Source: Candidatus Binatia bacterium
GTDB lineage: Bacteria > Desulfobacterota > Binatia > UBA9968 > CAXXLF01
Reading direction: 5' to 3'
DNA length: 64,000 nucleotides
Assembly: GCA_963664015.2 (NCBI GenBank)
Contig: CAXXLF010000002.1
Span: 1,440,001 to 1,504,000, forward strand
Below the pieces are notes generated by a model. The model ran no database searches. It was given only the letters and a program-made list of their open reading frames with translations, and was not told the DNA's origin. Shown piece by piece: positions 14,108 through 62,750 of the stretch; within the stretch, counting starts at the first letter, position 1, and each line of letters starts with the position of its first letter. The position numbers and the translations under genes were made by a program.

Positions 14108-14625
14108 GCAAACCGCCAAGCCCAATGGGCAAAGCGTTCATAATAGGACCACGGACTACTGACTACGGGACTACGAACAGACAGATATAGGGACAGAGCA
14201 AGAAAAGAAAAAGACAGTGGGCAGAAAGCCAGAGGTTGGAGGTCAGAAGTCAGCAAGAAGAAGGCTTACAGAAGAGAGAATCTTGGATTTGAATGCTGAG
14301 AACTAATCAAAACAATGAAAACTTACATTCCGGACACCTTGCCCTATGCGCCTTGCGATTACCCGTCTGCGATTATCGGCGTAGATCTGCGGTTAGCATA
14401 TTTTCTCCGAACTTGGCGCCCTTCGCGTCTTTGCTGCTCGCCCCGTGGTATAACGCTTCGGGCGAATAACCTGCGCGGTGAAGTATATATTCTACAGGGC
14501 AAGCTATCTTTTTCCGTAACTCTACGGTTAAGTATTCTTACCGCTATGCCTTTTGCCTTTTTACTTTTCCCTGTTAACTTGCGCAGCGCTTTGCGCCGTG
14601 CACTTTGCGCTATGCTGTTCTCTAG
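14108..14625. repeat. intergenic mosaic repeat block R1
   Basis: GACTACT/GACTACG and CAGAGGT/CAGAAGT heptamers, then a pyrimidine-rich half; 14147-14220 is a reverse-complement relative of 46441-46522; 14409-14590 matches 52862-52979. Confidence 0.85.
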
Positions 14626-14632
14626 ATAGGAG

Positions 14633-17158
14633 ATGCCGGATCACATTGTAATCAAGGGGGCACGGGTCCACAACTTAAAGGACATCGACCTGGAGATCCC
14701 CCGGGACCGGCTCGTTGTGATCACGGGCGTTTCCGGATCCGGAAAGTCCTCCCTGGCCTTCGACACGGTGTACGCGGAAGGCCAGCGCCGCTACGTGGAA
14801 TCTCTCTCCGCCTATGCGAGGCAGTTTCTGGAACAGATGAGCCGGCCCGATGTCGACTCCATCGAAGGCCTCTCACCGGCTATTTCCATCGAACAGAAAA
14901 ACGCCAGTCAAAACCCTCGCTCGACGGTAGGAACCGCAACCGAGATTTACGATTACTTGCGACTGCTCTACGCACGCATCGGAAAACCGCTGTGCATCCG
15001 GTGCCGCCGGGAGATCTCCGCTCAAACCATTCAACAGGTCGTAGATCAGATCGTTTCTCTCCCACCGGGAACTCGGCTCCTTATCCTGGCCCCCATCGCC
15101 GTCAAGCGTAAGGGCGAGTATCGTCAGAATTTTCAGGACCTGGCACGGGCCGGATTCGCGCGTGTCAAGGTGGACGGGAAACTCCACGAGCTGGATCAAG
15201 AGATTGTCCTGAAGCGGGAGGTCCCCCACGACGTGGATCTGGTTGTGGATCGGCTTGTCGTCAGGGCCGGTATTGAGAAACGTCTGGCGGATTCCCTGGA
15301 GGTTGCCTCCCGATATGGCAAAGAAGTGATCAAGGTAGACGCCTCACCTGGCAATAGTGAGACGAAAATCCAGAGTATGCTCTATAGCCAGAAATTTGCC
15401 TGTGTTCATTGCGGACTCTCATATCCTGAGATCAGCCCACGATTGTTTTCCTTTAACAGCCCCGTGGGCGCATGTCCCAAGTGCAACGGCCTGGGAACCG
15501 AGATACCCAATGAAAGCCCCGAGCAAGGGCTCCCGCTGTTTATCCAGGCTCGTCCGTGCAAATCCTGCAATGGCACTCGCCTGAAGCGGGAAAGCCTTCA
15601 GGTAAAAATCTCTGGGAAGAGTATTGCAGAGGTTTGTTCTCTCCCCGTCCATGAGGCCCTTGAGTTTTTCACTGGCCTGGGACTGAGCCCTCACGAAGAA
15701 ACCATTGCCACCAGGGTGTTAAAGGAGATTAACGCCCGGTTGAACTTCGTGGTTCAAGTGGGTTTGGACTACCTGAGCCTCGACCGAGGCTCGGCTACTC
15801 TTTCGGGGGGAGAAGGACAACGGATCCGGCTGGCCACCCAGATTGGTTCAGGACTTGCCGGAGTGCTCTATATCCTCGATGAGCCGACCATTGGGCTTCA
15901 CCCAAGAGACAATGGGCGACTCCTGGCGATCCTTAAAAACCTACGCGACCTGGGGAACACGGTTCTGATCGTGGAGCATGACCGGGATACCATGGAGGAG
16001 GCAGATTATGTCATCGACATGGGTCCTGGGGCGGGGGTCCACGGCGGTGAGGTCGTTGCATGCGGGACAACCGAAGAGATTAAGGCCAATGAGAAATCCC
16101 TGACGGGACAATACCTTTCCGGGCGCAGATTGATTCCTACCCCACCCCACCGACGGCAGGGAACCGGTGCGAGCCTCACTATCAAAGGGGCCAGGCAAAA
16201 CAACCTGAAAGGGATCACCGTCGCCTTCCCTATCGGTGCCATGACCTGTGTCACGGGGGTTTCCGGATCGGGCAAGAGCAGCCTGGTAGTTGACACGCTA
16301 TACAAGACCCTGGCACCGCGAGTTCCGCGATTGAAGGACAGGACAAGGACATTCGATGAAATCCTGGGCTGGCAGCATTACGACAGGACGATCAACATCA
16401 CGCAGAATCCCATCGGTCGCACCCCAAGGTCGAATCCCGCCACCTTCACCGGGTTAATGGACCCTATCCGCGAGCTCTTTTCTCAACTCCCCGCTGCACG
16501 GGTGCGGGGTTACGGACCGGGCCGTTTTTCCTTCAACGTCAAAGGGGGACGGTGTGAGGCCTGTACCGGAGACGGAATTCTCCGGATTGAAATGCATTTT
16601 CTCCCCGATGTTTTCGTAACCTGCGAGGTTTGTGGCGGGCGGCGTTATAATCGAGAGACATTAGAGATCTTATATAAAGGTAGGGGCATAGCCGATGTAT
16701 TGGATCTGACGGTCAATCAGGCCCTCGAGTTTTTGGGGAACATCCCTCCAATAAGGCAAAAGCTCGAGACCCTCCGGGACGTAGGGCTCGGTTACATCCA
16801 TCTTGGACAGTCGGCTACCACTCTTTCGGGGGGAGAAGCGCAACGTATCAAGCTCTCCCGGGAGCTGAGCAAAAGATCTACGGGCAAAACCCTCTACATT
16901 CTGGATGAACCGACCACTGGCCTACACTTTGACGATGTCAGTAGGCTCCTGGACGTATTAAACAGGATTACCGATGCTGGCAATACGGTCATCATCATCG
17001 AACACAACCTGGACGTTATCAAATGCGCCGACTTTGTCCTCGATCTGGGACCCGAAGGAGGGGATTTGGGCGGCCAAATCCTTGCTCAGGGGACTCCCGA
17101 GGAGATATCTTCAATCCAATGGTCCTATACTGGGCACTTTTTGAAGCCTTTACTATGA
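14633..17158 (+). CDS. uvrA: excinuclease ABC subunit A (short form, 841 aa)
   Basis: Two GVSGSGKS Walker A motifs, two LSGGE signatures, zinc-finger cysteines; AGGAG RBS. Confidence 0.95.
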
Positions 17159-17219
17159 CCTATGTAATTACTATAACTATGTTATATAAGCCTCCGACCA
17201 AACCCCTTCCCAAAATGCC

Positions 17220-17262
17220 TTGACATCAATATTTGCTTCCTATATATAAGACCCATTAAGTC
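17220..17262 (+). promoter_or_regulatory. sigma70-like promoter with IscR/Rrf2-like box upstream of iscS
   Basis: TTGACA at 17220-25, TATATA at ~17243, GAC-N7-GTC at 17250-62. Confidence 0.5.
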
Positions 17263-18562: not shown

Positions 18563-18566
18563 ATTC

Positions 18567-21652: not shown

Positions 21653-22390
21653 TTAACCCATATATTGGAGCGCCTTAAGCGCAATTTTAATCATCTTGTT
21701 TTCGGTGGCGACAAATCGGGGGTGGCGAAATCCAAATTTCCCGGTGAGACATTCATCGGAAACGACCAGGATCGCCCCGGCTTTCCTATTGCACACCTGA
21801 GCCACGGTGAGAAAGGCGGAAGTGACCATGTCGATGCCCGAGATCCCCTGCTGGTTGAGCTCTTCGAGGAGTTCCGGGGTCTCGCGAAACAGGGCGTCGG
21901 TCGTGTATACCCAGCCCAAGTGTACCCGGGCCTTGAGACTCTTGGCTGCTTTTGCCAGGGCACCGACGATTTCCGTGTCGGCTACAGTGGAAAAACTTTT
22001 AGGAACGTAATAGGGGGTCGTCCCCTCACCCCGTACCGCTCCCGTGACGACCACGAGATCACCGATCTTGACCTTCTGACTCAAGGAACCGCAGCTGCCG
22101 ATACGGATGAGGGATTCCACCCCGCCGGCACAGATCAGCTCCGTAGTGATGGCCGTGTCGGCGGCATAACGCCCGCCGTTGCCCACGGTCACTCGCTTTC
22201 CATTGCTGGTGCCCGTATACATCTCATAGTCGAGGAAGGCAAAACTCTTCTCCGGGTTCTCGAGGGCGTCGATCAGAAGTTTGGAACGCTCCTTGGGACC
22301 GGAGATCAGGGCAATGGATCCCAGGGAACCGGCTTTGACCCCCATTAACGATAGTAGTTTATTAGGTGTGAAGTGAGGTTCTTTACGCAT
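21653..22390 (-). CDS. nucleoside phosphorylase (PNP/UDP family)
   Basis: GP.ER, RIGSCG, RGEGTT, TTDALFRE and DMVT motifs. Confidence 0.85.
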   Translation of the reverse strand: MRKEPHFTPNKLLSLMGVKAGSLGSIALISGPKERSKLLIDALENPEKSFAFLDYEMYTGTSNGKRVTVGNGGRYAADTAITTELICAGGVESLIRIGSCGSLSQKVKIGDLVVVTGAVRGEGTTPYYVPKSFSTVADTEIVGALAKAAKSLKARVHLGWVYTTDALFRETPELLEELNQQGISGIDMVTSAFLTVAQVCNRKAGAILVVSDECLTGKFGFRHPRFVATENKMIKIALKALQYMG

Positions 22391-22528
22391 TGTTGGCGGT
22401 ATCCTGTCTAGATTGACTTCTGGTCGAGCACAACCCTGGGCGGAGTAGACCCGCGTTTGACGCCCCCTATCATTAAAGGGGGCTAGTTATCGGATTTCCC
22501 TGAGATAATGGGCCAATGGATAACACAT

Positions 22529-22557
22529 AAAATATTTGACCTTTAATCAATTGTCAA
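22529..22557 (-). promoter_or_regulatory. sigma70-like promoter of nucleoside phosphorylase operon with overlapping palindrome
   Basis: Minus strand TTGACA-N17-TATTTT; TTGAC-N12-GTCAA dyad at 22536-22557. Confidence 0.55.
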
Positions 22558-22604
22558 GATTGGGAAGAGCCGGTCTCCCTTCGCCTAATCGGCAACGGGG
22601 AGCA

Positions 22605-22912
22605 CCGAGCGCCAAATAGTAAGACAGTAGGCAGTACGCAGGGGGCAGTAAGACGCAAAGCGCATGGCGCCAAAAGCCAGAGATCGAAAGTCAGAGATCA
22701 GCAAAGCCAGGAAGACGGCAGGCTACTAGGATAAGATTTTAGATTTTTTCTACGTGCTGAGAACTACTATCTGGTTGTTGTCCTGTGGTCAGTAGTCCGT
22801 GAGTTGCTGCCGACTAACTTTCTACGCTTTGCCCTATGCCATTTGCTTTCTTCTTAGCTTGCCGCTGACTTCCGACTTCTGACCTCCGACCTCTCGCATC
22901 TGGCCACCTACT
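22605..22912. repeat. intergenic mosaic repeat block R2
   Basis: CAGTAGG-type and CAGAGAT-type heptamers in the 5' half, CTGACTT/CCGACCT complement in the 3' half; start matches 33837-33873 and 36750-36795. Confidence 0.85.
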
Positions 22913-22962
22913 GAAACGATTGGTTGCCTTTTACTCCGCCATTTGTTTAAACTCGCCCCTTG

Positions 22963-23397
22963 ATGACAAAGGCGTTTTTGAACCGGTATAGCAACAGCCT
23001 CTGGATCCGTTTCTTGCGCTTCAGCATATTTTCCAAAAAGAAGCTTCAGCAGGACCTAGAAAAGATCGGCCTCACTCCGCCCCAGTACTACCTTCTGGCG
23101 ACCATTGGCTATTCGGGCCGGCTCTCCTTCAGCGAGATCGGCGCCAAGATGATGGTGACTGTCAGTAATCTCACGGGTATCGCGGATCGCCTCGAGGAAA
23201 AGGGCTTCGCGGAGAGGGAGCGGGACAAGCGCGACCGCCGCGTGGTTTACGTCCAACTCACCAGCAAGGGGAGCAAACTCTACAAGGTGGCGATTTCTGC
23301 CTTCGAGAAGAGCGTCGCCGGTGTCTTTTCTCTATTGGAACCTGCTGAACAGAGACAACTCTATGCCCTCTTGCGTAAGCTGCTCCGCGCCCCCTGA
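22963..23397 (+). CDS. MarR family transcriptional regulator
   Basis: GLTPPQY, SNLTGIADRLEEKG and DRRVVYVQLT.KG motifs. Confidence 0.92.
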   Translation: MTKAFLNRYSNSLWIRFLRFSIFSKKKLQQDLEKIGLTPPQYYLLATIGYSGRLSFSEIGAKMMVTVSNLTGIADRLEEKGFAERERDKRDRRVVYVQLTSKGSKLYKVAISAFEKSVAGVFSLLEPAEQRQLYALLRKLLRAP

Positions 23398-23720
23398 ATC
23401 AGCTAGCGCTACGGACGGTTCGACTACGGACGACAGGACTACGACCAGACAGAAACAGAAATAGGGAAGAGATCAGATTTCAGAGGTTAGAAAGACAGCT
23501 AGCAGCATGCAGACAGCAGCTGTAAACTAAGACCTAATACTGATAACTGATTACTGACACCTTACGACTGAAAATCCGTACGCTTTCCGCTTTGCAGCCA
23601 ACGATGGAATCTGAGCGCTACTCCCTGCCTGCTTATTGCTGGCTTCGCTGATCTCTGACTTTCGATCTCTGGCTTTTGGCGCCATGCGCCTTGCTCTATG
23701 CAGCGCCATCCACCCATGCC
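23398..23720. repeat. intergenic mosaic repeat block R3
   Basis: GACTACG and CTGATAA heptamers; 23639-23694 is the reverse complement of 22655-22710 (54/56). Confidence 0.85.
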
Positions 23721-23734
23721 CGCGGGATCCGTGG

Positions 23735-24007
23735 CTAGTCTCCCCTGGCAAAACAATGGGTACAACAGTTATAGATCCAGCCGAACAGGGCGCCTCCCAC
23801 AGCACCATCCAGCGCGCCATACAGGGCCCCTACGATAGCACTACCCAGAGTCTCCGTGAGCTTATAACCCGGATAGATGGAACTCATGACCTCGAGAAAA
23901 CTCCGGCCGTAATCTGGCCAAATGAGGTTGGCCAAGGCAACGAGCAAGCACGATCCTCCCCACAGGATCGCCGCCGTCATAGTCAAGGACTTAACCGAAA
24001 GTTTCAT
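23735..24007 (-). CDS. small hypothetical membrane protein
   Basis: Two hydrophobic helices and SIYPGY motif; start overlaps addA stop. Confidence 0.75.
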   Translation of the reverse strand: MKLSVKSLTMTAAILWGGSCLLVALANLIWPDYGRSFLEVMSSIYPGYKLTETLGSAIVGALYGALDGAVGGALFGWIYNCCTHCFARGD

Positions 24008-27000
24008 AATCCCTCCTTTCCTTTTTGTCCTACCCCAATGGAAGACGCCGGGTCAATGTCTATTGGCACTGCTTGACCCAAACGCAATAAAACTATCTTA
24101 AACGCGGCTACTTCCCGTTTCAGGGAAAGCCGTACCGCGTCAGAATAGATTCGGGCCTGGTGATGGTACCCCTCGACCAACTGGGAGAGGTCCCGACCCT
24201 GGACGCGGTCGGTTTTGTAATCTGCCACGTAGAGTTTGCCGTCTTTTTCGTAAAGCACATCCATGACCCCCTCCATGATCTGCTCCCCCCAGGGGATCAA
24301 TAGTGGAATCTCCCGCCCAAGGATGTGTGAGCTCTTGAGCTCTTCGTACGCCGGGGAATTGAAGAAGATCTGGAATATATCTTCTAGCTCTCGTTCCAGG
24401 GCGAGTTGAGCGTCCTTATCACGCCCATTCAGGTTACGGCCAAGAAAGGCCATGAGGCCCTCACGAAACGTAAGAGGGTCCCCGGCAAAGTCCCAATGCT
24501 CCAAGAACCTGTGCGCCAGATCACCGATGAAAAGGGCATCTGGGTTCAGACGGCTTCCACCGTGGCCATGAGCAACTGGACCTATTCGTTTCGTCTCTTT
24601 TTCCTTGAGCAACGTGGGATGGATAAAGAGCGGAGTCACCAGGGTCTCTTCGTACCTTTCCTTCCGCCGCTGAACTATCTTCCCATAGACCTGCGTATCG
24701 ATTTCCACGATGGGCATCTGGGACCCGCTGGCCGTAGAGCTAGGCGGCTCGAGCTCTTCTTGCAGGACCTGCAATTGGATCGTCCCCTCCCCGGCGGCTA
24801 CAGGTTGGGATTCCGTTAACGACCTCAAGTCTCCCGTGGCCTCTTGGAGCAGAGACATGAAACTCCCGTTCGCCTGTCTCTTGGCCGCGGCACAAGAGAG
24901 GGTCAGGTGCTCGCGAGCGCGGGTCGCAGCTACGTAGAATACCCGTTTCTCCTCTTCTTCTTCGCGAGCCTTCTTCTTCTCATCGAGGAAGATCCCTGAC
25001 AGATTCCAGAGATCATCCACATGCAGTCCCACCAGGTGAGTGGACCAGTCATGATAAACCTCCACGGCATCCGTTCCCTGGCGGTTCACCCCGGCCTGGC
25101 AACCGGCCAAGACCACGAGGGGGAATTCCAATCCCTTGGCCTTGTGGACACTGAGGATCTTGACTGCGTTCAATCCCTCCTCCGCAAGACTGCTCTCTCC
25201 CTCTTCCTGCATTTCGGTGACTCGCTCTTCCAAGGTCGCGATGACGCCTTTCAACGTCCCCGCTCCCTCCCGTCCCATCTCTTCGGCAAGGAAACGAACC
25301 TTTTCCAGATTCGCAACCTGCTGCTCTCCATGATAGGAGCTTGCGGCCAAGGCCATCACAGGTAGCGAATCAAAGATCGCACCCACCGCCTCTCCCACCG
25401 GGAGCTTAGGGGTTTCTATGTGAAGGCGACCGAGTAGGGAATAGAGTTCCCGCACCCGAGACCCCGGACCTTTCTTGGGGACCCCTTTGACCCAAGCCAC
25501 CGCACGATAATCGAGGAACCCCTGTCGATGGAGATCGTAGAGCTCCCGGTCGTCCAGTCCCCCCAGGGGAGATCGAAGCACTCCCGCCAGGGCTAGCCGG
25601 TCATAGGGATTTTCGATAGCACGGAGCAGGTTCACCATGTCGATGACTTCCTGTGTGGCATAAAAGTGTTTTCCTCCCTCCACCACATAGGGGATACCGC
25701 GCCTGCGCAGCGGTTCCAGAACCTGATCCACGTGAACCAGGGAGCGCATCAGGATAGCCACATCGCCTGGGCACACCGGCACCATGGAACCACTCTTATC
25801 GAGGATGGCAGCCTTCTGCAGGACCTCCTCGGCAAGCCAGCGGGCAAGTGACTCGCCTTCCAGCCGCCGCGCTTCGTCGGCATTGAGATCCTCGTCGCCT
25901 TCGACTCGACGAATCTCCACCTGATGCAACAACTGTGAAGGTAGGGCGTCTTCTCCCGCCCTCTCCTCCAGGGGATGTATAGGCGCATATGGCGGTTGGA
26001 GCCCATGGCGCTCTTGAATGAGCTGGGAAAAGAGTCCGTTGACAACGTTAAGTATCCCCCCATGGCTTCGAAAACTGGTTTTGAGGGTAAACTCCAGGCC
26101 GTTTTGTTTTTCTATGACGTCATGAACCACACGCAGATGGGCCTCTATATCAGCACGCCGAAAGGCATAGATCGACTGCTTTGGGTCGCCCACGACAAAG
26201 AGCTTTCCCGGTTGCAGTTTGATCTTGCGCCAGTCCTCGGCCTGCCGCCCCTTCTCTTCGGCAAGGTAGAGCAGGACCTCATACTGGATGGGATCCGTAT
26301 CCTGGAACTCGTCCACCAGGATCGCTTTAAAGCGCCTCTTGAGCTCTTCCCTTATCTCGGGATGCTGCCGTAAGAGCTGCCTGGCCCGCACCAGCAAGCC
26401 ATCGAAGGAGATGAAACCGGCCCTCACAAAATTCTCACGGCAGCCTTCGGCGAAAGGGATAAGGAGATCGCATAGGTGCCCGGTAAATTCCCGGTCTACG
26501 GCAAGGATACGACGCGCCACCCGGACCAGCCTCCTGGCCTCATCTACTTCATTTCCATTCCAACCCTTGGGCCCGGTGAAGGATTTACCAGAAACCAGTA
26601 GAGACTTTTCCGCCTCCAGCACACCGGACCCGATGGATCCCCGTTGGAGAAATTCTCGGAACAGCTGCCCCGAGGCCTTCACATGCTGTTCGATCGCTCG
26701 GTTTTCCGGATGTTGATCGAGGAGTTGAGCGGCCTTTTCTTCCAGAGCTTTTAACCCGGATTGATGCAATTCGATCTCCTCATCACCTCGCACCAGTTGG
26801 GCGAGTCGTGAAAGGTCTATGGACTCGGGGCTCAGTGCGTAGGCCAGCTCCCGGATGCGTTCGAGGGGGAGCCGGCGCAGCACCTCTTTCCACGATTCCT
26901 TGCGCACCCCATCGCTAGACAGCTCACGGTCCAGCCAGAGATCCCAGCTCTCGTCGAAGTGCCTCTCGAATTGCCTTCCATCATCTTCACGGAACTGGGG

Positions 27001-33409: not shown

Positions 33410-33553
33410 AACAGCCTCCCTAAACCTCTGACACGAATTGTAATGACTCTGGTGGGACTGACCGGATCTATGGCCACCCCACCCTGACCCTAATAATTAG
33501 CATCCCAAGCTCACTACTTGCCAGAGGTAAGTCAATTATGTAACTTTTAATTG

Positions 33554-33826
33554 ATGCCTGATTCCATTGAGGTTACCCGGAAGGATTCTAAAACCTTTAC
33601 GGTCACCGTGAATGCAGCTACTCCAACCACACACACGGTTACCCTCGAACCTGAATACTATGAAAAGCTCGCCGGCGGCAAGGTCACGCCGGAAACGCTC
33701 ATTGAGAAATCCTTTGAATTCCTGCTTGAACACGAGAGCAACACGTCGATTCTATCCAGCTTCGACCTCCCCGTGATCGGCCGTTATTTCCCCGAATACG
33801 AACGGTCCGTCGTTCAGCGACTGTAG
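33554..33826 (+). CDS. conserved hypothetical protein
   Basis: Intact ORF with SFEFLLEHE.N.SIL..FDL..I.RYFPEYE motif. Confidence 0.8.
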   Translation: MPDSIEVTRKDSKTFTVTVNAATPTTHTVTLEPEYYEKLAGGKVTPETLIEKSFEFLLEHESNTSILSSFDLPVIGRYFPEYERSVVQRL

Positions 33827-34135
33827 GCGCAAACCAGTAAGACAGTAGGCAGGGGGCAGCAAGACGCAAAGCGACAGAAGTCAGAGATCAGCGAGGCCAG
33901 AAATACAGCAAGGCAGCGCTAAGATTTCAGCTTTGACCGCAAAGCGCATGGAGCATAGCGCAAAGCGTTCCGGTCTTAGCTATCAGCACTCAGCTTTTAG
34001 TTCCGGACTAGCCCGCAATTAGTGTTCGGTTGATAGGATTCGAATTCGAATTTCTTGCTGTGTTCTGCATACTGCCTTTCTGCTCACTGTCTTTCCGACC
34101 TCTGACTCCTGATCTCTGGCCTCTGATCTCCGGCG
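33827..34135. repeat. intergenic mosaic repeat block R4
   Basis: Begins at the stop codon; AGTAAGACAGTAGGCAG, CAGAAGT/CAGAGAT, GCAAAGC/GCATAGC modules and a pyrimidine-rich counter-half. Confidence 0.85.
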
Positions 34136-34342
34136 GCCCCCCCCCGGGGAACCTTTGGCGTCGGACAATTGTTATATCTACCGATATATAAGGATATAAG
34201 TATGGCTAGTAAGGAAAAAGGCTATCGACCCACCTGAGCTGGCAAGGCATGGGGCGCGCTCCTGTTAGGGGCGGTCATGGTTGGGGTTTGGCTCATAAAG
34301 TGTCTGATGGGTTGAGGAAATCTACAATTTTCTGAATCCGGG

Positions 34343-34875
34343 CTAGTGCTTGGCCCCGGGGACGGAATTATTAACGGCCCCCTCGATCGACTTGGCCCGC
34401 CTCCGCTCGTTGGCTGGCCGGCTCTTACCATCCCACCCGATCTGGTCCATGGCTGCGTAGATCTCGATATTGAAACCGTTAAAATCCTGAAACTCCACCC
34501 CCACATTGCATCCCGGTCCCCGGCGACCTTCGAACTGGATCACCAAACCCTTGGCTCGCAAGAAATCACGAATTGTATATAGCTCCGAGACGCTGCTCAC
34601 CTCCAGGGCACAGTGGCTGAACCTGACCCCATCGGCATTAGGAACCTTGCCCGAATCCACAGCCGGGGCCAAGCCCATGGTATGGTGATCCGAGGTATTG
34701 CGTAAAAAGACCATACCCCGGTCGTTTCGGTCCGTGATGTGAAAGCCCATGATCTCGGTCCAGAAACGGGTGGTCCGCTCTACGTCGGAGACATTGAAAA
34801 CCACATGTCCTACTTTCTGACCCGCACCGGCGAGTTCTGCCCTTCAGCCTGCGTGTTGGATCCTTCGTTGGCCAT
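34343..34875 (-). pseudogene. VOC/glyoxalase family protein with a 1-nt frameshift near the 5' end
   Basis: GGAGG+ATG at 34875 reads MANEG...PVRVRK*, while the KVGHVVFNV...HH..FSHCALE..IEIY body is in another frame (shift at ~34815). Confidence 0.7.
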
Positions 34876-34928
34876 GCGACACCTCCCCTGATTTACACCG
34901 GAATTAAAAGTTTAAACTCGATAGTGGG

Positions 34929-35930: not shown

Positions 35931-36123
35931 AATGGGTCTCCTGTCTACGGCCCGGTTAGCATACTGCCGCGATTAACGTCAATCCCACTGCGTGATTCGT
36001 GGGACGACCTGTTCTTACACGATTTATAATAAACTATATCAACCACGGGGTTTAAATCCTCGTGTTCTATATAACTTTAAAAGGAAAGAGCTACCGCTTC
36101 TCCCCTTTGGAAGCCCCATCAGT

Positions 36124-36200
36124 CCTTCGACTCTGCTCAGGATGGTGAGCGTGCCCTTTGAGAGCCTCAGGGCCATGAGCTTGTCGAATCGGTCGAACCA
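36124..36200. repeat. nested REP-like element
   Basis: CCTTCGAC..GCTCAGG..GTGAGC..GTCGAACC with a second copy inserted at 36154-36190; relatives at 58012-58050 and 62343-62389. Confidence 0.7.
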
Positions 36201-36237
36201 TTATGTGCCCGCGGCAAGCCGCGGGGCTCCCTAATAA

Positions 36238-36651
36238 TCAAGACGATCCATCCAGAATGGGTAGATGGGACTCGTCAATTGCCGCCCAGTTCACCCGGCT
36301 GGCCCACTGCTTGTGAGCTGTAGGCCGGGTCGCCGGTTCGTCGTCCAGCGTCCCGGCGGGGATGATCACCTGCTCGCCGTTGCGCGTCGCATGGGGCACA
36401 GGGGAACCGCAGTGTCTGCAGGTGCAAGTGGCAAAGCTCTGGGCCTCCGGCAGGTCGTAGCGAAATATAAGCTCCTCCCCCACGGTCCAACGGAACTGAT
36501 CCATCGGCACTGCTATATTCGTCGCCCGCACCCCACCCGTCGCCTTCCTGCAGCGCCGGCAGTAGCAGTGGCTGAACCTGAGGAATGGGGTATCCACCTC
36601 ATACCGAACCGACTTGCAAAGACAACTTCCGTGAAACACTGTTTCCGCCAT
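36238..36651 (-). CDS. GFA/CENP-V family zinc protein
   Basis: GSCLCKSV, CYCRRC and C.HCGS motifs. Confidence 0.9.
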   Translation of the reverse strand: MAETVFHGSCLCKSVRYEVDTPFLRFSHCYCRRCRKATGGVRATNIAVPMDQFRWTVGEELIFRYDLPEAQSFATCTCRHCGSPVPHATRNGEQVIIPAGTLDDEPATRPTAHKQWASRVNWAAIDESHLPILDGSS

Positions 36652-36729
36652 TCGACCTCTCCTTTTTCCCGGCCCGCCAGACTTAAAGATAACCTATGCA
36701 ACCTTCCAAACCTTAGCAAGTACTCACGA

Positions 36730-37065
36730 CATAGAGCAAAGCACTAGACAGTAAGACCGTAGGCAGTATGCAGAGGGCTGCAAGATGCAAAGCACATAGG
36801 GCAGGGCGCAGCAGAAGTTAAAAGGGAAAGGTAAAAAGGGAAAAAACAAAGAAGGCTGTCAGCTATCAGCTTTCAGCTCCGGACTCACGAGTGTCAAGAT
36901 TTGGACCATGAATTCTCTTCGTTGATCACTTAATACTATTCCGGCCCCCCCCGGTCTTCTGTCTTTCTGACTTCTGACCTTCGACCTCTGATCTATGATC
37001 TCCGTCTTACTGCTTACTGTCTTTCTTTTCCCCCATACTTTACGCTATGCTCTTGGCTCTTTGCT
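36730..37065. repeat. intergenic mosaic repeat block R6
   Basis: Shared modules; 36805-36863 is the reverse complement of 39691-39749 (56/59). Confidence 0.85.
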
Positions 37066-37133
37066 GTAAGGGTTTCATGCTCGCATCCAGACCAAGGAAT
37101 TTAAAATAGTCCTGAGAACAAAGGAAATGCCCT

Positions 37134-39434: not shown

Positions 39435-39805
39435 GCAAAGCGCATTGCGCATAATGTTTGTCTTTGGCGTTTAGTGTTCAGTTACCGTCCTTAGTCGTTA
39501 GTCGCTGATGAGATCTCAAATTTCAAATAATGCCAAAATCCGGAACTCTAAACAATATCAAAATTCAAATTACCAAAGCCCTAAACTATCCAATGCTGTA
39601 GTTTCGAAATTAGGCATTCTGTTATTTGACTTTATTTCGGATTTAGGATTTCGTTATTCGATTTTCGAAACTGTCTTTTTTCTTGGCATGGCTGACAGCC
39701 TTCTTTGTTTTTTGCCTTTTTACTTTTCCCTTTTAACTTGTGCTGCGCCATGCTCTTTGCCCTTTGCTATATTCTTGCATGACCTCTGTCTCTTTCCGCC
39801 TTGCC
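39435..39805. repeat. intergenic mosaic repeat block R7
   Basis: TCGTTAG heptamers, AT-rich imperfect inverted pair 39511-39586/39601-39666, TTTTTACTTTTCCCTTTTAACTTG module. Confidence 0.85.
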
Positions 39806-39806
39806 T

Positions 39807-44742: not shown

Positions 44743-44759
44743 TTGTTTTCCTCCTGGAA

Positions 44760-44960
44760 TAGTAATCAGTCTTCAGTTCTGAGTGATCGGTGTTTAGTGT
44801 TACGCTTCAACCGGTAGATTTCCCGTTATTATCACTCCGGCTTTACCCCGCCGGCTCTTTGATTGTCAAGATCCGTTTCACGCCTTGCGCTCTGCGCTTT
44901 TCCTTTTTCTTACCTGATCGCTGAAAGCTGACGGCTGACAGCTAAATTCCTCAGCACTAT
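44760..44960. repeat. intergenic repeat block R8
   Basis: GCTGAAA/GCTGACG/GCTGACA heptamers; 44913-44942 is the reverse complement of 59009-59038 (3 mismatches). Confidence 0.75.
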
Positions 44961-46148: not shown

Positions 46149-46149
46149 A

Positions 46150-46640
46150 ATACAATCGGCTCTTAGCTGTCAGCCTGACCGAGCCAGAGGTCGGCGATCA
46201 GAAGTCAGAGAGCAGAGGGCGGATGTCGGAAACACTGCAAAGGGCAACACGCAAAGCACGCCAAATAGAGAATTCGGGACTCGAAAACTGGGAACTGCGC
46301 CCTGATAACTGATAACTAGACTCCCTCAGTACTCAGCACTCGTTACTCAGTACTGACCTGCTGATCACTGATACCTGAACTCTTACCCATGATCTCTGAC
46401 TTCCGACCCCTGATATCTGATCTCTGACTTGCTGCATACCACCTGCTGTCTTTCTATGTTCTGGCTCTGTCCCTATCTCTATCTCTGTCCGTTCGTAGTC
46501 CCGTAGTGGGTAGTCCGTGGTCTCTTCCTGCTTTGCATCGCTGACGGCTGACAGCTAATTGCTCTTTGCCCTTAGCTCTATGCGCTTTGCTTCTTTCTTT
46601 GCTGACCTCCGACCTCTGGCCCTTGCCCTCTGCTCCTAGC
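46150..46640. repeat. intergenic mosaic repeat block R9
   Basis: CAGAAGT, CTGATAA, CTCAGTA-CTCAGCA-CTCGTTA-CTCAGTA (46325-52), CTGACTT, GTAGTCC and GCTGACG modules. Confidence 0.85.
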
Positions 46641-46646
46641 CCCCCG

Positions 46647-47781: not shown

Positions 47782-47912
47782 TGTTTAGTTCTCAGTAATC
47801 AGTTTTCAGTATTAAAGTTCGAATTGCTTCCTGATGCTACAATCCTATACCTGCTCCAAGGTTGGTGCAGATTGGTGGGGAATGAAAATTAAAACGTTTA
47901 AGGATTAAAGGA

Positions 47913-48122
47913 ATGCCCGGGAAATGCACACAATGTGGATCGAGGACCTACCTGGGTCGAACCACGATACAAACCGACCTACTTGAGATCCGCAACGTCC
48001 CCTGCACCGCTTGCCAAGAATGCGGGAATGAGGAGATAGGACATCAGGTTCAGAGTAGAATCGACAAGCTAGTGGAACGATCAGGCAAAGGAAAACTAAA
48101 GGATCGAGTAGTGACAATGTAA
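47913..48122 (+). CDS. YgiT-type zinc finger protein
   Basis: CTQCG and NVPC.ACQECG motifs. Confidence 0.75.
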   Translation: MPGKCTQCGSRTYLGRTTIQTDLLEIRNVPCTACQECGNEEIGHQVQSRIDKLVERSGKGKLKDRVVTM

Positions 48123-48149
48123 GGGGTTACGGCGAGATCCCTTTAATCT

Positions 48150-48215
48150 TAGATGACGGCTAACAGCCTTCTTGGGTTTTTTTCCTTTTTACTTTTTACT
48201 TTCGCCTTGCCAACT
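48150..48215. repeat. partial repeat block R11
   Basis: GACGGCTAACAGCCTTCTT..TTTTTACTTTT variant of 39691-39740; abuts the amidase stop. Confidence 0.65.
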
Positions 48216-48216
48216 A

Positions 48217-49728: not shown

Positions 49729-50199
49729 TGAACCCTCCTCATTTTTGTTGGCCAATTTCACGCCATCCATAGTTCAATCACCAACAAAAGTCCACCTCCC
49801 TTACCACCTTGGCATATTTCCTGCCTCTCATGTTCCAGATAGCGGAAGTAACGCCATTCATAGGGAGATTTGTTTATGGGACGTCAGAAAAATCTATCAG
49901 ACCAGGATCCGGCACGTACAAAAATGCCCGAGCAGACAAGGCTCGGCTAGAAGTGGGATTCGACAAAAGACCGCCTGGCAGCCGCCATTAGTGATTTAGA
50001 GGAAAAAGATACTTCAGAAATTCCCGAGGATTTACTAGCCCTCGAAAAACTTCTCTACGGCAACCGTAATAAGGAGGAGTAACCACGGGCATGGGGTGGT
50101 CTCAGATTGCGCCCAGCGTCTCGAGACATCACACTCCCGATCGTTAAAAAGTGGCCCGCCCTATTTTTTTGATTATCTGTAATCCTGAAGTGTATAGAC

Positions 50200-50356
50200 C
50201 CTTAGCTCTTAACTGAGAACCGACAACGGATAGCTATCTTCCTGCCCACTGCGTTCTTCGATGCAAAATTAATTATCTCCGATAATCGGCGTGAATCTGC
50301 GGCTGGGAACTCTTAACGCTTTGCCTTTTTACTTTTTCCTTTTAACTTGCGCAGCT
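50200..50356. repeat. intergenic repeat block R12
   Basis: ATAATCGGCGTGAATCTGCGG module plus TTTGCCTTTTTACTTTTTCCTTTTAACTTG; abuts stop at 50357. Confidence 0.8.
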
Positions 50357-51403: not shown

Positions 51404-51584
51404 AGGAAAACTTTCCTTTCCGAATTCAGAACGCCGGATCTCCCTCGGCTCGAAAGTTTTAGACTCACCGCACCCCCCCCCCCGATCAACCACCCCTATT
51501 ATCTTTAAGCCCCTCCCCTTGTCAATGCCCCCATCCGCCGACTCCCCCCACCCTCTGCCCGCTGCGCTCCGCCGTAAACAAATG

Positions 51585-51715
51585 ATTATCTGCGTTAGCC
51601 GGCGTAAATCTGCGGTTAAAAACTCTTAACCCTCTGATTCTCTTACCTCCGACAACGATTTTTACCTTTTTACTTTTCCCTTTTAACTTGCTTAACTTGC
51701 CATTCGCCCTGCGCC
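51585..51715. repeat. intergenic repeat block R13
   Basis: 51585-51690 is the reverse complement of 62497-62602 (98/106). Confidence 0.88.
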
Positions 51716-51744
51716 TTGACAGCGTAGGGGCACGGTTATAGCCT
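51716..51744 (+). promoter_or_regulatory. sigma70 promoter
   Basis: TTGACA-N17-TAGCCT directly after the repeat block. Confidence 0.6.
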
Positions 51745-52841: not shown

Positions 52842-52859
52842 GCGGTTAGTAGATCTTCT

Positions 52860-52979
52860 CTGAACTTGGCGCCCTTCGCGTCTTTGCGCGAGCTATCTTT
52901 TTCCGTAATTCTACGATTAAGAATTCTAATCGCTTTGCCTTTTGCCTTTTTACTTTTCCCTTTTAACTTGCGCAGCGCT
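52860..52979. repeat. intergenic repeat block R14
   Basis: Near-copy of 14409-14590 lacking the 64-nt insert. Confidence 0.88.
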
Positions 52980-53537
52980 ATACGCTACGCTGCTATCATC
53001 GCCATAAGCCTGCTTGCATTATTATGGGTCGCACCCCCTGCTGGGGCGAGCCAGACTGACGAGCGACTGGATACCATTTTCGATCGCATTAAGACCACCG
53101 ACAACAACGCTGAAGGCGCAGCCCTCGCCGAGTTGATCTGGGAGATTTGGCTCCAGTCCGACAATGACATCGTCAACGATCTCATGTCCAAGGGCATCGA
53201 GGAGATGTCAGTCCGGAATTACAAGGCAGCCTTGACTGCCTTCAACAAAATGGGGGAGATTGACCCTGAATTCGCCGAAGGCTGGAACAAGCGGGCGACA
53301 GTGTATTATTTGATGGAAAATTACAGAGCCTCAATGCGCGATATCGAACGGACTCTAACCCTTGAGCCACGCCATTTTGGGGCGCTCTCGGGTCTGGGTT
53401 TGATCTTTTTGGCCATCGGTAACGATGGGGCTGCACTTAAGGCCTTCGAAGCGGCCCTTGAGGTCAACCCACACATGCCTGGCCCGCGAGCGTACGTAGA
53501 GGAACTGCGCCAACGCTTTCGCAAAAAATCGTTCTGA
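52968..53537 (+). CDS. secreted TPR protein, start codon uncertain
   Basis: Signal-peptide-like IRYAAIIAISLLALLW..AGA; PEFAEGWNKRATV and PRHFGALSGLG motifs; no ATG/RBS before the signal peptide. Confidence 0.7.
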   Translation: MRSAIRYAAIIAISLLALLWVAPPAGASQTDERLDTIFDRIKTTDNNAEGAALAELIWEIWLQSDNDIVNDLMSKGIEEMSVRNYKAALTAFNKMGEIDPEFAEGWNKRATVYYLMENYRASMRDIERTLTLEPRHFGALSGLGLIFLAIGNDGAALKAFEAALEVNPHMPGPRAYVEELRQRFRKKSF

Positions 53538-54916: not shown

Positions 54917-56025
54917 CTACGTCGGCTCTCCCTTTAGTGACGAGCTTCTTAAGCCCGCGCCCATCCCTGTATTGGGGTAGGCTGGCAACCAAATACCCCC
55001 CCCGGGGTTGGCGACAGGGCACTGATCGCTGATCATATCCTTGGGAATATCCATGCGCATGGAGTTGTGTTCCGAATTATTCTGCCATGCCAGTTGACCG
55101 TCTTTGGATATCATCCAGTTTGCGAAGACCTTCGCCGCGTTGGGATGGGGGCGCCGGTTCATCACCGCGACGTACTCCCCTCCCCCCCGGAGAGATGCCC
55201 CTCGGTCTTGGGTGCACGATAGACGTCAACGGGCAAACGCTGTTTTTTGGCAGTCTGAACCTCCGCGTTCCTGGCTCCAATGTATAGCTCATAGCTACCC
55301 TTGGCGATCCAGTCGATCATCAGCCTGATGTCTCTCCCAACAGTAACGTCCATCTCCCTGAACAATCGCTGGATGAATTCCGGGCCAAGGCTCTTGTTGT
55401 AGTAGATGCCCTTCCACGTCCCCAACTGGCCTCGGCTCATGGGATCAAAGACCACCATCTTACCGCGCCGCTTGGGATTGAGAAGGTCTTTGATGGTCTT
55501 AAGCTCACCGGGCTTGTGCCTCTTGGTGTTATAGAGTGCGATCGTGGAGGTAACGGTCCATTCCATATTAAACAGGGGGGGGGTTGGATCCGCGTACAGG
55601 TGTTTTTTACCGAACCAGACCGACTGGTCCCTGTTCTCCGGTAAGATCAACACCGGTGGAAACGGATCAAAGAAACCCTTCCCGGCCAGGATGCCACCCG
55701 TTCCGGAACCGTTAATAAAAATATCCGCGATGAATTTTCCCGCGCGGGGTTCGGCACCGAGCCGGTTGGCGTGTTGGCCCCCGGTACCCACGACAGAGAC
55801 CATCTTGATCTTGGGATACACGCGTTTAAATGATTCGATGGCGTTGATGTACTCGGTCCCCGGCGGTCCATAGACCTTGACGTTTTCCTCTTACCGTGCC
55901 GCGGCCAGGGTTTTTTCCCAGTCGGCCTTCCAGTCCGCTTGTACCGGCCTATTAAACGACAGCAACAAGGGACTTAAAAGAGTGCAGAATATGAGTTAAC
56001 ATTTCAGACGATTAAGCATTTTCAT
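54917..56025 (-). pseudogene. extracellular solute-binding protein pseudogene
   Basis: GGAGG+ATG, two in-frame TAA codons near the 5' end, frameshift near 55170; PHPNAAKVFANW motif; paralog of 63630. Confidence 0.8.
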
Positions 56026-57829: not shown

Positions 57830-57904
57830 GCCGCACTGCCTACCGCTTGTGAAGTGAAGGGGTCTGAAGGGGTCAAGTCTTTTGTTGACAAATAGGCTCA
57901 CGGA

Positions 57905-58160
57905 ATGAGCTGTCAGCTATCAGCTAAAAAGAAAGCAAAGAGCAGAGGGTTAAGAATACTTAACCGCAGATTTTCGCAGATTAACGCAGAAAAAGATTCA
58001 CCGCAGAGCCGTCCCTCGAGGCTGCTCGGGACCCTGAGCCTGTCGAAGGGCAGAGAGCGCAGAGAACTCATATTTTGTTTGTCGAGAGACGGCGACAAAC
58101 AAAAGCATCTCCATTGCGGACAATAGCCTGACTTAATACCCGAGAACTCTCAACTGAGCG
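57905..58160. repeat. intergenic mosaic repeat block R15
   Basis: ACCGCAGATTTTCGCAGATTAACGCAGA, embedded REP-like unit 58012-58050, perfect 12-bp hairpin 58073-58104; modules shared with 62550-62680. Confidence 0.85.
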
Positions 58161-58182
58161 TATCGATCACCCAGACCTGGCT

Positions 58183-58899: not shown

Positions 58900-59165
58900 G
58901 GGCAAGGGGAAAGTAAAAAGGGTGGCAAGGCAGAGAGAGCGACAGGGACAGAGAGCAGAGGTCGGAGATCAGAGGTCAGAAACCAGGGGAGAAGGCAAAA
59001 CGAGATTGGCTATCAGCCGTCAGCATTCAGCTATCAGGAGAATACCAGGGACAACGGACTACTGACCACAAGACGACGGACAGACGGAGAGAGACAGACA
59101 AAAGCAAAGCGGTAAGCGTGCTGAGTAATGAGTGCTTGGAAAAGTGTCAAGCGTTAAGCGAATTC
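58900..59165. repeat. intergenic repeat block R16 (purine-rich half)
   Basis: CAGAGGT-CGGAGAT-CAGAGGT (58956-76), GCTATCA and GACTACT modules. Confidence 0.82.
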
Positions 59166-60456: not shown

Positions 60457-60670
60457 GGATTTGGAGTCAAGTCTGCTCTTGGCTCTTTAGCTAGCAAGTT
60501 CGGTCGGTTTGTCATGGAGGTCAGGTCTTGTCATGGAGGATAGAAAGCAAAGGCAAGAATTTATGATTCCAAGACTCGACCCTCTTCCCTTAGTATTATC
60601 TTGCCGATGAAAAATAGCGGAGAGGGCAGGACGCCTCTTACGGGAGCCCCCCATCTGAGGAGAAAGTGGT

Positions 60671-61394
60671 ATGGGAGAGAAAAGCACAATGCCATTGATT
60701 ATTGGTATTATCATTGCGGTTCTAGCTGCAGGGGGTGGTGCCGTCACATGGATTGAGTATTTCACCGCAAAACCTGAGAACGCAGACGTGCTAACGTGGG
60801 AATCTCTTCAGTCTGATTATCTTGAATCTTTCGACGTTGCATACACAGATCCAAGAATGAAGTCCACATCGCCAACCTTTAGGGATGCTCAATGGACAGG
60901 CTGGACCAGTGACGGGAATTATTGCTACTCCAGCAATAGTGATAAAAACAGCGCTCAGTATCATTACGCTGGGGTAGGCGAAAGGGACATTTACAACACA
61001 CCTGCCTCAGTCGAAGTAAAAACTAAGAATCTCTCGAATAGCACACCAATATCTGCTGGTGGATTATTGTACCGCTTCGATAAGTCAAGGTCATATTACT
61101 ACGCATTTACCATTACCAATCAAGGAGGTGGTCTACTTTTATAAGAAAAATAAGGATGGTTGCAACGTCGTTTATACTGGAAGGTCAAAGTTATTTGTAG
61201 CGAACAACTCTAACAAGCTTGCGATAATCGGCGAAGGTAGTTCTCTTCATTCGTACATAAACGATTCTCTTGAAAAAATTGTTGAGGGCGAGGAGTTAAA
61301 GCTCGGCGATTCGGGCATTATCGGTATTGGGATTGGACAAAACTGTTTTGACAACTTTACGTTTCCCAAAGACATAGACAAGCTGCCCAGTTAG
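60671..61394 (+). pseudogene. AT-rich membrane-anchored beta-rich protein, frameshifted at ~61125
   Basis: N-terminal TM helix; GGLLYRF..YYAFTI continues as VVYFYK..NKLAI...YIND..G.IGI..FDNF in another frame. Confidence 0.6.
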
Positions 61395-61574
61395 CTCGAT
61401 AGAAAAGAGCGTAAAAGGGTCGAATCTGCTCTCGTTTCGCTCCGCTCCCGCTAACAGCTAATTTCGACAGTCGCCCCTCCAGCCTCCTTTAGTTGCGGCT
61501 CTTAGATGGTTTGCACTTACCACACGCTGGTACTAGATTCGCAATGGTTCAATCAAACTCACGAGGAGACGTGA

Positions 61575-62219
61575 ATGGAAATCACTCTTTACTACGCCCC
61601 CAACACCTGCGCACTCGCTCCCTATATCACGCTGACCGAAGCGGGTGCCGATTTCGAGGCGCATGCGCTCAACTTCCGCAAGCGGCAGCATTTCTCGGCC
61701 GAGTATCTGAAGATAAATCCCAAGCACAAGGTGCCAGCGCTCGTGGTCGACGGTAAGATACTGACCGAGAACGTCGCGATGCATCAATGGGTCCATCGCA
61801 CCTTCCCCGACGCAAAGCTCCTGCCCGCCGATCCGTGGGACGAGTTGCAGGCGATCTCGCTGCACGCCTGGTATGCCACCGGCATTCACCCCTACCTGGC
61901 CCGGATCAACAATCCGCCCAAGGTCTGCGACGCAGCGGGCGCGTCCGACAGCATCGTCAAGTTCGCCACTGAAACCCTGTTCGAGAGCTTCCGAATCGCC
62001 GACGAGAAGCTCGCCGGGCATGAGTACTTCTTCGACCATTTCACCGCCCCGGATGCGCATTTTTTTTGGTGTTGTCGCCGCGCCACCCAGTTGGGGGTGG
62101 ACTTGTCAGGCTTCCACAACGTCGGCGAGCATTTCAAGCGCATGCTGGAGCGCCCGAGCGTTAAAAAGCTGCTCGCCTACGACAAAGAAGTGGAGGAACG
62201 GTTCGCCAACATCGGGTAG
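61575..62219 (+). CDS. glutathione S-transferase (beta-class-like)
   Basis: YYAPNTCALAP, INP..KVPAL, LTEN.A and FT.PD motifs. Confidence 0.9.
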   Translation: MEITLYYAPNTCALAPYITLTEAGADFEAHALNFRKRQHFSAEYLKINPKHKVPALVVDGKILTENVAMHQWVHRTFPDAKLLPADPWDELQAISLHAWYATGIHPYLARINNPPKVCDAAGASDSIVKFATETLFESFRIADEKLAGHEYFFDHFTAPDAHFFWCCRRATQLGVDLSGFHNVGEHFKRMLERPSVKKLLAYDKEVEERFANIG

Positions 62220-62750
62220 ACAGAGATAGAGAGCAGCAAGGAAAAAGGCAAAACGAATTTAGCTACCAACTGTCAACCACACAAGCCAGAGAACAGATGT
62301 CAGAAGTCTGAGGTCAGACGACAGAGACACGATACTCGCGCACCCTTCGACCCATCGACAGGCTCAGGGTCCCGAGCATAGTCGAGGGAAAGACTCCGCC
62401 AAAGGACGGATCAGCCTTGGGCTAAGCAAAGGGCGCCAAGCTTTAAGAAACCAAAGAAACCTTTAAGAATTCACCGCAGAGATGCAGGGCGGAGCGCAAG
62501 TTAAAAGGGAAAAGTAAAAAGGTAAAAATCGTTGTCGAAGGTAAGAGAATCTGAGGGTTAAGAGTTTTTAACCGCAGATTTTCGCCGATTATTGCAGACA
62601 ATAGTTGTGTTTGTTTGCCGGAAGACGGCGACAAACAAAAGCTTAGCTGTTGCGGACAATAACCTGAGCTAACTTCCTCACAATTGATATTACCGCAGAT
62701 TTCGCAGACCAGCAAAGCGTTAAGATTGGACAACGGACTACGGAGCATAG
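62220..62750. repeat. intergenic mosaic repeat block R17
   Basis: CAGAAGT module, REP-like 62343-62389, AAGTTAAAAGGGAAAAGTAAAAAGG, ACCGCAGATTTTCG and GACAAACAAAA modules. Confidence 0.85.

Follow-up and report, generated by a model that had tools for sequence, protein, structure and literature searches.

The 64-kb stretch of DNA analysed here (contig CAXXLF010000002.1, positions 1,440,001 to 1,504,000, hereafter the window; about 55% G+C) carries, between its genes, mosaics built from short modules of polar heptamer repeats. According to Pfam, the genes include housekeeping functions (PFOR-beta, LipB/LipA, Mfd, SurA, PdxA, phosphoglucomutase, a UvrA-like protein, two NifS, MarR, AddA/AddB and PepN) and, from about 34 kb onward, a catabolic set with four Amidohydro_2 genes, an amidase, LigB, a LigXa-type Rieske oxygenase, a nitrile hydratase and two GSTs. 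The modules are about 20-60 nt long, mostly have an internal 7-nt beat and fill the dispensable part of many spacers. An initial annotation of the window, made from the letters alone, had reported such mosaics, and this observation is confirmed for the 64 kb covered, though not its designation as genome-scale.

The 7-nt period was quantified by autocorrelation. In the pooled spacers of at least 100 nt (30 spacers, 11,349 nt), base identity at lag 7 was 0.3234, compared with 0.2540 +/- 0.0039 in 30 dinucleotide shuffles (z=18.0), with harmonics at lags 14, 21 and 28 (z=11.9, 6.5 and 4.2, respectively), while the coding DNA of the window displayed period 3 only. When a period-7 segment is defined by at least 17 of 28 lag-7 matches, 32 of 35 segments fall between genes and another is located in a mis-called start of an open reading frame (ORF), although intergenic DNA makes up about 18% of the window. 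Tandem Repeats Finder likewise returned many arrays of period 7 and period 14, with 2-10 copies each. The elements had been proposed to be non-coding, with which both the period of 7 instead of 3 and the lack of Pfam matches among the ORFs inside them agree.

The modules are also shared between spacers. A blastn-short comparison yielded 86 high-scoring segment pairs (HSPs) between different spacers, involving 15 of 31 spacers, compared with none in five local-composition shuffles and 6 in coding chunks; the other 16 spacers had no significant shared match. All but one of the 17 start points listed in the initial annotation fall within the 15 match-sharing spacers. Two of the 17 (47782 and 48150) belong to one spacer in our map, divided by a small zinc-finger ORF, and the start point at 63370 is represented by just a 27-nt match of 81% identity and short arrays. 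Altogether, the repeat blocks cover about 4.6 kb, or 7.2% of the window, and account for 40.9% of the DNA between its genes. The accompanying proposal that the elements partition the accessory genome into single-gene units fits the region from 44 to 53 kb purely as a description; about half of the spacers in the window are the 16 without shared matches.

Chance, low-complexity composition or an assembly artefact might in principle produce such a pattern, and loose heptamer matches (up to 3 mismatches in 14 nt) are indeed frequent in shuffled sequence too (223 observed, shuffle mean 149). This kind of matching was too permissive, and longer matches and profile matches were used instead. The strength of the periodicity and the lack of HSPs in shuffles make this explanation extremely improbable, as do multi-module blocks that recur at 89-97% identity. 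The flanking genes are moreover intact and their order is conserved with an independent genome, and a sequencing read is much longer than the repeats, which would therefore not produce mis-joins.

All module types named in the initial annotation were found. Tandem Repeats Finder and an array scan recovered units of CAGAGGT, GGACTAC(G), CAGTAGG, GCTATCA/GCTGTCA, CTGATAA, CTCAGTA, GCAAAGC and AAAAGGG/AAAAGTA, together with a 10-nt CGCAGA run at 57960-57990 and short hairpins. The hairpins are minor modules (2 and about 6 copies); one has a stem of 12 bp and lies at 58073-58104 (z=-5.9), the other is GGTTAAG..CTTAACC (z=-7.5). Most of the repeated DNA is non-palindromic. A block of AAAAGGG, AAAAGTA and AAAAGG(C/T) units is present in 8 copies (nhmmer E 2e-14 to 5e-8) with a constant order of variant units, and a block of CAGTAAG, CAGTAGG and CAGGGGG units plus GCAAAGC in 3 copies of 82-91% identity; the longer shared blocks measure 107 nt (93%), 98 nt (90%) and 80 nt (89%). 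Since the order of variant heptamers recurs between module copies at 80-97% identity, the modules are copies of common sources and not locally grown arrays.

Their make-up is combinatorial, as had been proposed, with shared modules in varied orders and with alternative neighbours. In an alignment of ten copies, the AAAAGGG-type block is preceded either by the hairpin plus a CGCAGATT run or by a GCTGACA array, and the copies vary by one 7-nt unit and by entire blocks, of 28 nt or 64 nt. Descent from a single master element with deletions was ruled out, as module order differs between arms. A 39-nt block is common to 58012-58050 and 62351-62389 in inverted orientation (90%), with a weak relative in a locus of another phylum (L020, 4270-4305). 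One of its frames reads ...LSLSKG..., a kind of string that we take to occur in spurious ORFs of many phyla. At the centres of six blocks, palindromic hexamers were 2-fold enriched only (13 in 441 positions, background 0.0148 per position), and GAATTC was not clearly enriched.

All modules occur in a left and in a right form, even those of GCTGTCA type and TAACTGA type, which have no purine bias. In these terms, the repeat blocks and arms of the window, with the MarR gene that two of them enclose, are as follows:

14107..14632: full mosaic block that separates the PGM stop from the UvrA-like start, with GCAAAGC-, GGACTAC-, CAGTAGG- and CAGAGGT-type modules in left form and, in right form, a CGCAGATT run, the GGTTAAG hairpin and modules of AAAAGGG type and GCAAAGC type.
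22605..22910: full block between the nucleoside-phosphorylase-like promoter region and the MarR promoter, with the left copy of a 59-nt inverted repeat at 22655-22713.
22960..23397, + strand: MarR gene, bracketed by the blocks at 22605 and 23398 and inverted relative to the related genome L001 described below.
23398..23705: full block from the MarR stop to the stop of the holin_4/DUF5676-like gene, with the right inverted-repeat copy at 23636-23694 and a TAACTGA-type array.
33827..34140: full block beginning at the stop of a 91-aa ORF; module order is equal on the two sides, not mirrored.
36729..37070: full block separating the GFA gene from the MFS gene; over 80 nt, its left arm (36787-36866) and 39688-39767 are 89% complementary.
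39439..39806: right-form arm only; the arm at 39680-39806 adjoins the ADH gene stop.
44758..44960: right-form arm upstream of a hydrolase gene; its left edge carries a TAACTGA-type array in reverse orientation.
46149..46645: largest of the full blocks; over 57 nt, its right arm and the left arm of the block at 14107 are 84% complementary.
47782..47830: reverse TAACTGA-type array directly 3' of a stop codon.
48140..48216: right-form arm adjoining the amidase stop, downstream of a YgiT-type zinc-finger ORF at 47913-48122.
50195..50356: right-form arm with the CGCAGATT run, the hairpin and AAAAGGG-type units, adjoining an amidohydrolase stop.
51520..51725: right-form arm; its part at 51585-51691 and the sequence at 62496-62602 are complementary at 93% of 107 nt.
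52842..53010: right-form arm, about 90% identical to 14389-14596 save for a 64-nt block found only in 14389-14596.
57895..58182: left-form arm that comprises the 10-nt CGCAGA run, two hairpins (GGTTAAG and the 12-bp one at 58073-58104) and the 39-nt block inverted with respect to 62351-62389.
58906..59125: left-form arm adjoining the GST gene start.
62220..62760: long left-form composite beginning at a stop codon.
63370..63415: short left-form remnant of AAAAGG-type plus GCTGTCA-type units, the weakest member.

The listed features include the contacts with stop codons that had been annotated initially, namely those at 14107, 33826, 39807, 48217, 50357 and 62219.

Left forms precede right forms in all 44 profile copies (six module families in 15 spacers) with no violation. 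Copies in the outer thirds of a spacer lie on the predicted side in 28 of 28 cases, and the 7 copies that fail a strict midpoint test have relative positions of 0.40-0.55. Among non-redundant HSPs between spacers, 39 of 44 are direct if the matches lie in the same half and inverted if they lie in opposite halves; these HSPs are not independent, and one family dominates them. Gene direction is irrelevant to the orientation, because module instances are found on the 3' side of the nearest gene (28) about as frequently as on its 5' side (25). Module orientation is therefore set by the side of the spacer and not by the direction of the genes. A purine-to-pyrimidine polarity had been described for the full blocks and holds in all six spacers with both kinds of period-7 segment, but purines are not what the rule is about, as unbiased modules obey it too. 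A role of the right form as a translational insulator with stop codons in all frames was checked by hand and rejected: it is true for the GCTGTCA-, TAACTGA- and CAGAGGT-type modules and reversed for the CAGTAGG- and AAAAGTA-type modules.

The two arms of a spacer do not pair with each other. In local alignments, complementarity scores between arms of the same spacer were 20-32, compared with a background mean of 14 (maximum 22) and with scores of up to 177 for arms elsewhere, and the best partner lay in the own spacer for none of 11 left arms and none of 12 right arms. Local inverted repeats do not exceed 30 nt, and those of 29-30 nt are 72-77% complementary. In the blocks at 22605 and 33827, module order is equal on both sides without mirroring, so that pairings would cross. 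The minimum free energies of the RNA, scored against 40-nt block shuffles, gave z values of -1.2, -0.4, -2.4, -2.6, +0.1 and -2.5 for the blocks, and +0.2, -0.9, +2.0 and +0.3 for control spacers. No match to Rfam was obtained at the gathering score, and the two unrelated sub-threshold matches at E<=1 lie outside the blocks. The proposal of a folded single-stranded DNA or RNA element is thus weak or unsupported, and the hairpin (foldback) model is rejected by arm complementarity, the best partners being in other spacers. Together, the left/right rule and the non-complementary arms place a hard constraint on any mechanism.

In order to compare the window with its relatives, species-representative genomes were scanned on the basis of PepN. 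The best match (80% PepN identity) was L001 (OZ244621.1), an uncultured Candidatus Binatia metagenome-assembled genome with a G+C content of 0.54. Eight further loci had 61-63% identity (six labelled Binatia, one Deltaproteobacteria and one Thermodesulfobacteriota), and the remaining ones, mostly Dehalococcoidia/Chloroflexota, 48-55%. L001 keeps the gene order amidohydrolase, glyoxalase, PepN, AddB, AddA, small membrane protein, MarR and nucleoside-phosphorylase-like gene, with about 5.3 kb of different genes between glyoxalase and PepN, where the window has less than 1 kb. The repeats are a different matter. The spacers flanking MarR in L001 (187 and 203 nt) hold no heptamer mosaic, period-7 segments number 0.44 per 10 kb as compared with 5.47 in the window, and eight module profiles with 48 matches in the window had none in the nine closest loci, L001-L009 (about 197 kb). 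Non-coding DNA amounts to 18.9% of the window and to 6.6-13.3% in L001-L009. The elements are thus present in the window and missing from two orthologous spacers of its relative.

They also coincide with a rearrangement. MarR is inverted between the window (22391-24007) and L001 (19378-21195), and in the window it is bracketed by two mosaics that carry a 59-nt inverted repeat of 95% identity. The promoter-proximal sequences beside MarR (its own upstream 40 nt) and beside the phosphorylase-like gene are conserved in L001. Judged from sequence, this arrangement fits an inversion by recombination between the repeat copies. The empty orthologous sites in L001 are confounded by this inversion, and the 64-nt indel between two module copies has no clear target duplication. 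Between MarR and AddA, a small two-helix membrane protein is encoded at 23735-24007 (holin_4 subfamily at E=9e-17, below the cut-off; DUF5676), which is conserved in L001 (19378-19632) and whose gene has a 4-nt overlap with the AddA start.

We tentatively posit, with a confidence that falls a little short of even, that the mosaics are non-coding, non-autonomous dispersed repeats specific to a Binatia-like lineage, which have been spread and reshuffled by homology-driven copying and slippage. Copying between spacers would proceed by homology or microhomology, either as gene conversion or through a growing 3' end that switches template. Slippery points for out-of-register pairing would be provided by the heptamer arrays, and replication slippage would alter the number of units. 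As copying preserves orientation relative to the flanks, every descendant would inherit the polarity of founder inverted-repeat elements, even as the order of the modules becomes scrambled. Rearrangements between copies, such as the MarR inversion, would be a by-product, and the elements themselves probably lack any required function as RNA or in protein binding.

Several points weigh against this proposal. The copying mechanism is inferred from the pattern, and the comparison draws on one close relative with 22.5 kb of sequence. Homology-driven copying alone cannot seed an element-free spacer, so that a separate colonizing step is needed, by transposition or by microhomology break repair. As the data cover a 64-kb window, they are also compatible with a trans-acting enzyme encoded elsewhere in the genome, which makes mobilization in trans a serious rival. 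Two further patterns, both unfavorable to neutral copying, concern the single arms of the window and the arrays of other phyla.

The ten single-arm spacers are non-randomly distributed, with six right-arm-only spacers at 39-53 kb followed by four left-arm-only spacers at 57-63 kb, which the copying model does not predict. The left-arm-only group lies inside a segment with paralogous sequence in inverted orientation at its two ends (55655-56019 and 63630-63994; 365 nt, 75%), and the genes of this segment, on both strands, have positive GC skew, unlike the genes to the left of it. This 7.6-kb segment may be an old inversion. The paralogous copies extend over 55162-56019 and 63630-63998, and their family is unassigned; two in-frame stops interrupt the N-terminal part of the left copy, which is therefore truncated or a pseudogene. 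A replication origin near 56 kb as the reason for the single-arm runs was ruled out, as no DnaA-box cluster was found there.

GCTGTCA-type arrays were found in four Chloroflexota loci, directly 3' of stop codons or before stop codons. They clearly obey the left/right rule in 10 of 12 cases, with 1 ambiguous and 1 contrary, and an inverted pair lies between the same convergent genes in three species (L016 7186-7240, L019 6775-6839 and L064 7442-7484; GCTNTCA-type with differing unit variants). This pattern could reflect a conserved function or shared mobilizing machinery instead of neutral spread, and the inverted pair may be a conserved 3'-end hairpin. Orthologous Chloroflexota spacers differ by a centre plus right arm (L016 and L019) or by one arm (L016 and L061). 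In L020, labelled Saccharibacteria, an AT-rich heptamer-like array at 4582-4686 is purine-rich and then pyrimidine-rich, which is the same polarity.

The elements might instead be miniature mobile elements resembling miniature inverted-repeat transposable elements (MITEs), repetitive extragenic palindromes (REP/REPIN) or PATEs, moved in trans by an enzyme encoded elsewhere, possibly on single-stranded DNA at the replication fork, with adjacent and nested insertions building up the mosaics. We regard this as possible, though rather unlikely. It would account for the discrete blocks that are present or absent between copies (64 nt in 14435-14498, and 28 nt in two copies), for the recurrence of short strong hairpins, for the element-free orthologous spacers of L001 and for the GCTGTCA-type arrays in another phylum. 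The ten single arms are co-oriented in two runs, and if the deviant segment is indeed an old inversion, they share one chromosomal orientation, as strand-coupled insertion predicts; this would hint at a strand-coupled process. According to Pfam, however, no transposase, RAYT-like (REP-associated tyrosine transposase), reverse-transcriptase or integrase gene is present in the window. Terminal inverted repeats were not found within the blocks, the one block-level indel inspected had no target duplication, and module order is neither constant nor mirrored, unlike in simple nesting. In addition, 62220-62760 had no plasmid match (blastn), and the vicinity of 56 kb offers no DnaA-box cluster as a replication landmark.

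Alternatively, the arms could act as cis elements of transcripts, the pyrimidine-rich arm as an upstream leader for translation tuning or Rho loading, and the purine-rich arm as a downstream 3' end element. A purine-rich form 3' of the nearest gene and a pyrimidine-rich form 5' of it is found for 43 of 53 module instances, but this count restates the left/right rule, which holds for any gene orientation. Arms adjoin stop codons, and the end of one is 14 nt away from the start codon of the UvrA-like gene, on its upstream side. The inverted pairs kept between the same convergent genes in the three Chloroflexota loci are likewise in line with a role in cis. In the literature, translational roles are proposed for the TAACTGA repeats of Beggiatoaceae (PMC4679880), and heptamer repeats are reported to affect recF/recO expression in Nostoc (bioRxiv 10.1101/2022.06.06.494920). 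Against this stand the same genes without elements in L001, the 16 spacers without significant shared matches, the lack of an Rfam match, folding close to that of composition-matched shuffles and consensus scans of 22300-24100 and 33400-37200, in which promoter- and terminator-like sites were not enriched. Because a relative lacks the elements and because of their symmetry at gene ends, a cis-regulatory role is less likely than mobilization in trans, and we consider it improbable.

A further explanation starts from the left/right rule itself: whichever of the two flanking genes is taken as the starting point, the strand that runs 5' to 3' into the spacer always has a given module in the same form. 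Each arm would then have been acquired separately, instead of as a copy of the other, and the geometry would be that of 3' ends extended into a gap. The mosaics could in this case be scars of such 3'-end extension followed by head-to-head joining at the centre, similar to a telomere-telomere fusion. The extension might come about when nascent strands or the ends of breaks switch from one heptamer array to another as template, or it might be the work of a dedicated end-extending polymerase or reverse transcriptase. We consider this quite unlikely; if true, the process would be common to several phyla, as the same rule applies in Chloroflexota, and would represent an undescribed way of making and moving intergenic DNA.

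Whichever way they arose, the repeats call for caution in annotation, as ORFs and gene starts can be called within repeat DNA. The ORFs at 14315-14629, 39508-39843 and 62443-62748 (about 100-111 aa) lie entirely inside it and have no family match, and the TTG start of a TPR gene at 52866, inside a repeat, is mis-called. The latter two ORFs are spurious, and all three, together with the start at 52866, are likely annotation traps. The zinc-finger ORF at 47913-48122 (69 aa, YgiT-type, TIGR03831 at E=6e-6) stands alone between two repeat arms. Repeat blocks are densest in 34900-62300, where catabolic genes, including nitrile hydratase alpha and beta and a molybdopterin oxidoreductase, are also dense; these genes suggest the breakdown of aromatic or nitrile compounds. 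The UvrA-like protein next to the first block (14633-17158) has 841 aa, presumably less than a canonical UvrA, and its N-terminus appears intact. Elsewhere in the window, a 161-aa ORF at 3624-4109 matches positions 273-381 of 426 of the RtcB profile only and is probably a gene fragment. A scan for tRNA and tmRNA genes of the window returned none, and TIGR02436, GxxExxY and GIY-YIG families were found neither among 54 of its ORFs (Pfam) nor among 17 (NCBIfam), so that the association with such genes mentioned in the initial annotation is not confirmed. Our literature search retrieved no paper on repeats of this sort in Binatia and none that mentions TIGR02436.

The mosaics invite comparison with several known systems, and the initial analogies with short tandemly repeated repetitive (STRR) sequences and with bacterial interspersed mosaic elements (BIMEs) are reasonable as likenesses, but not as membership. 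BIME, REP and REPIN sequences are non-autonomous intergenic mosaics of few motifs with small hairpins in alternating orientation, located beside gene ends. The mosaics of the window are similar in being intergenic, non-autonomous combinations of few motifs with small hairpins beside gene ends. They differ in that their core consists of heptamer-periodic, non-palindromic blocks instead of a 20-40-nt palindrome, in that they have two sorted arms instead of alternating ones and in that no RAYT is present in the window. MITEs and foldback elements have a fixed polarity whatever their insertion orientation, lack coding capacity and vary in presence between relatives. These traits are shared by the elements of the window, whose blocks nevertheless have no terminal inverted repeats, no visible target duplication and a variable internal order. 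Integron attC arrays, whose cassettes are mostly co-oriented and each have one attC at the 3' end, with an integrase nearby, differ from the mosaics, which have mixed gene orientation, arms at both gene ends and no integrase in the window.

More closely, the mosaics extend a widespread and unexplained kind of bacterial heptamer repeat, represented by STRR and TAACTGA sequences. As in heptanucleotide simple sequence repeats, their 7-nt units are arranged head to tail and the period-7 segments are predominantly intergenic. With STRR and other long simple sequence repeats they have in common 7-nt tandem arrays, a non-coding bias, several unit types per genome and copy-number steps of 7 nt. They are distinguished by other units, another phylum, dispersed longer blocks with a constant variant order and the admixture of non-heptamer modules. 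None of the period-7 units of the window, we presume, equals a cyanobacterial STRR unit, and the nearest genome is Candidatus Binatia, not cyanobacterial. Published accounts describe heptanucleotides as the commonest long repeats (Mrazek 2007, cited in PMC4679880 and PMC4692102) and state that a detailed literature on heptameric repeats does not exist (Rehm 2015, PMC4692102); a Nostoc preprint addresses effects of heptamer repeats on recF/recO expression (10.1101/2022.06.06.494920). The parts of PMC4679880 and PMC4692102 that were consulted contain no left/right rule like that of the window.

For the TAACTGA repeats, the published study reports occurrence in Beggiatoaceae, Cyanobacteria and Bacteroidetes and mixed heptamer assemblages (MacGregor 2015, PMC4679880). 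These repeats are missing from orthologous spacers of relatives, have a patchy spread across phyla and possibly a role in rearrangement, and no mechanism is offered; in a Beggiatoaceae genome, most share one orientation and precede a start codon by a few nt (PMC4679880). At least 2 direct copies also occur in the window, as a perfect CTGATAA x2.3 at 46302-46317 and ACTGATA x2.7 (91%) at 23539-23557, both mixed with other heptamers, and as reverse-strand arrays at 44761-44788 and 47785-47813. Here, in contrast, they form a minor module situated near the centre or left edge of a block, after a stop codon or beside the start of an upstream gene and not at ribosome-binding sites, and module instances in general are located at stops as often as at starts. 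Heptamer repeats are common in bacteria, and to these the window adds a case from an uncultured phylum in which they occupy about 7% of the DNA and are linked to a concrete gene inversion, that of MarR.

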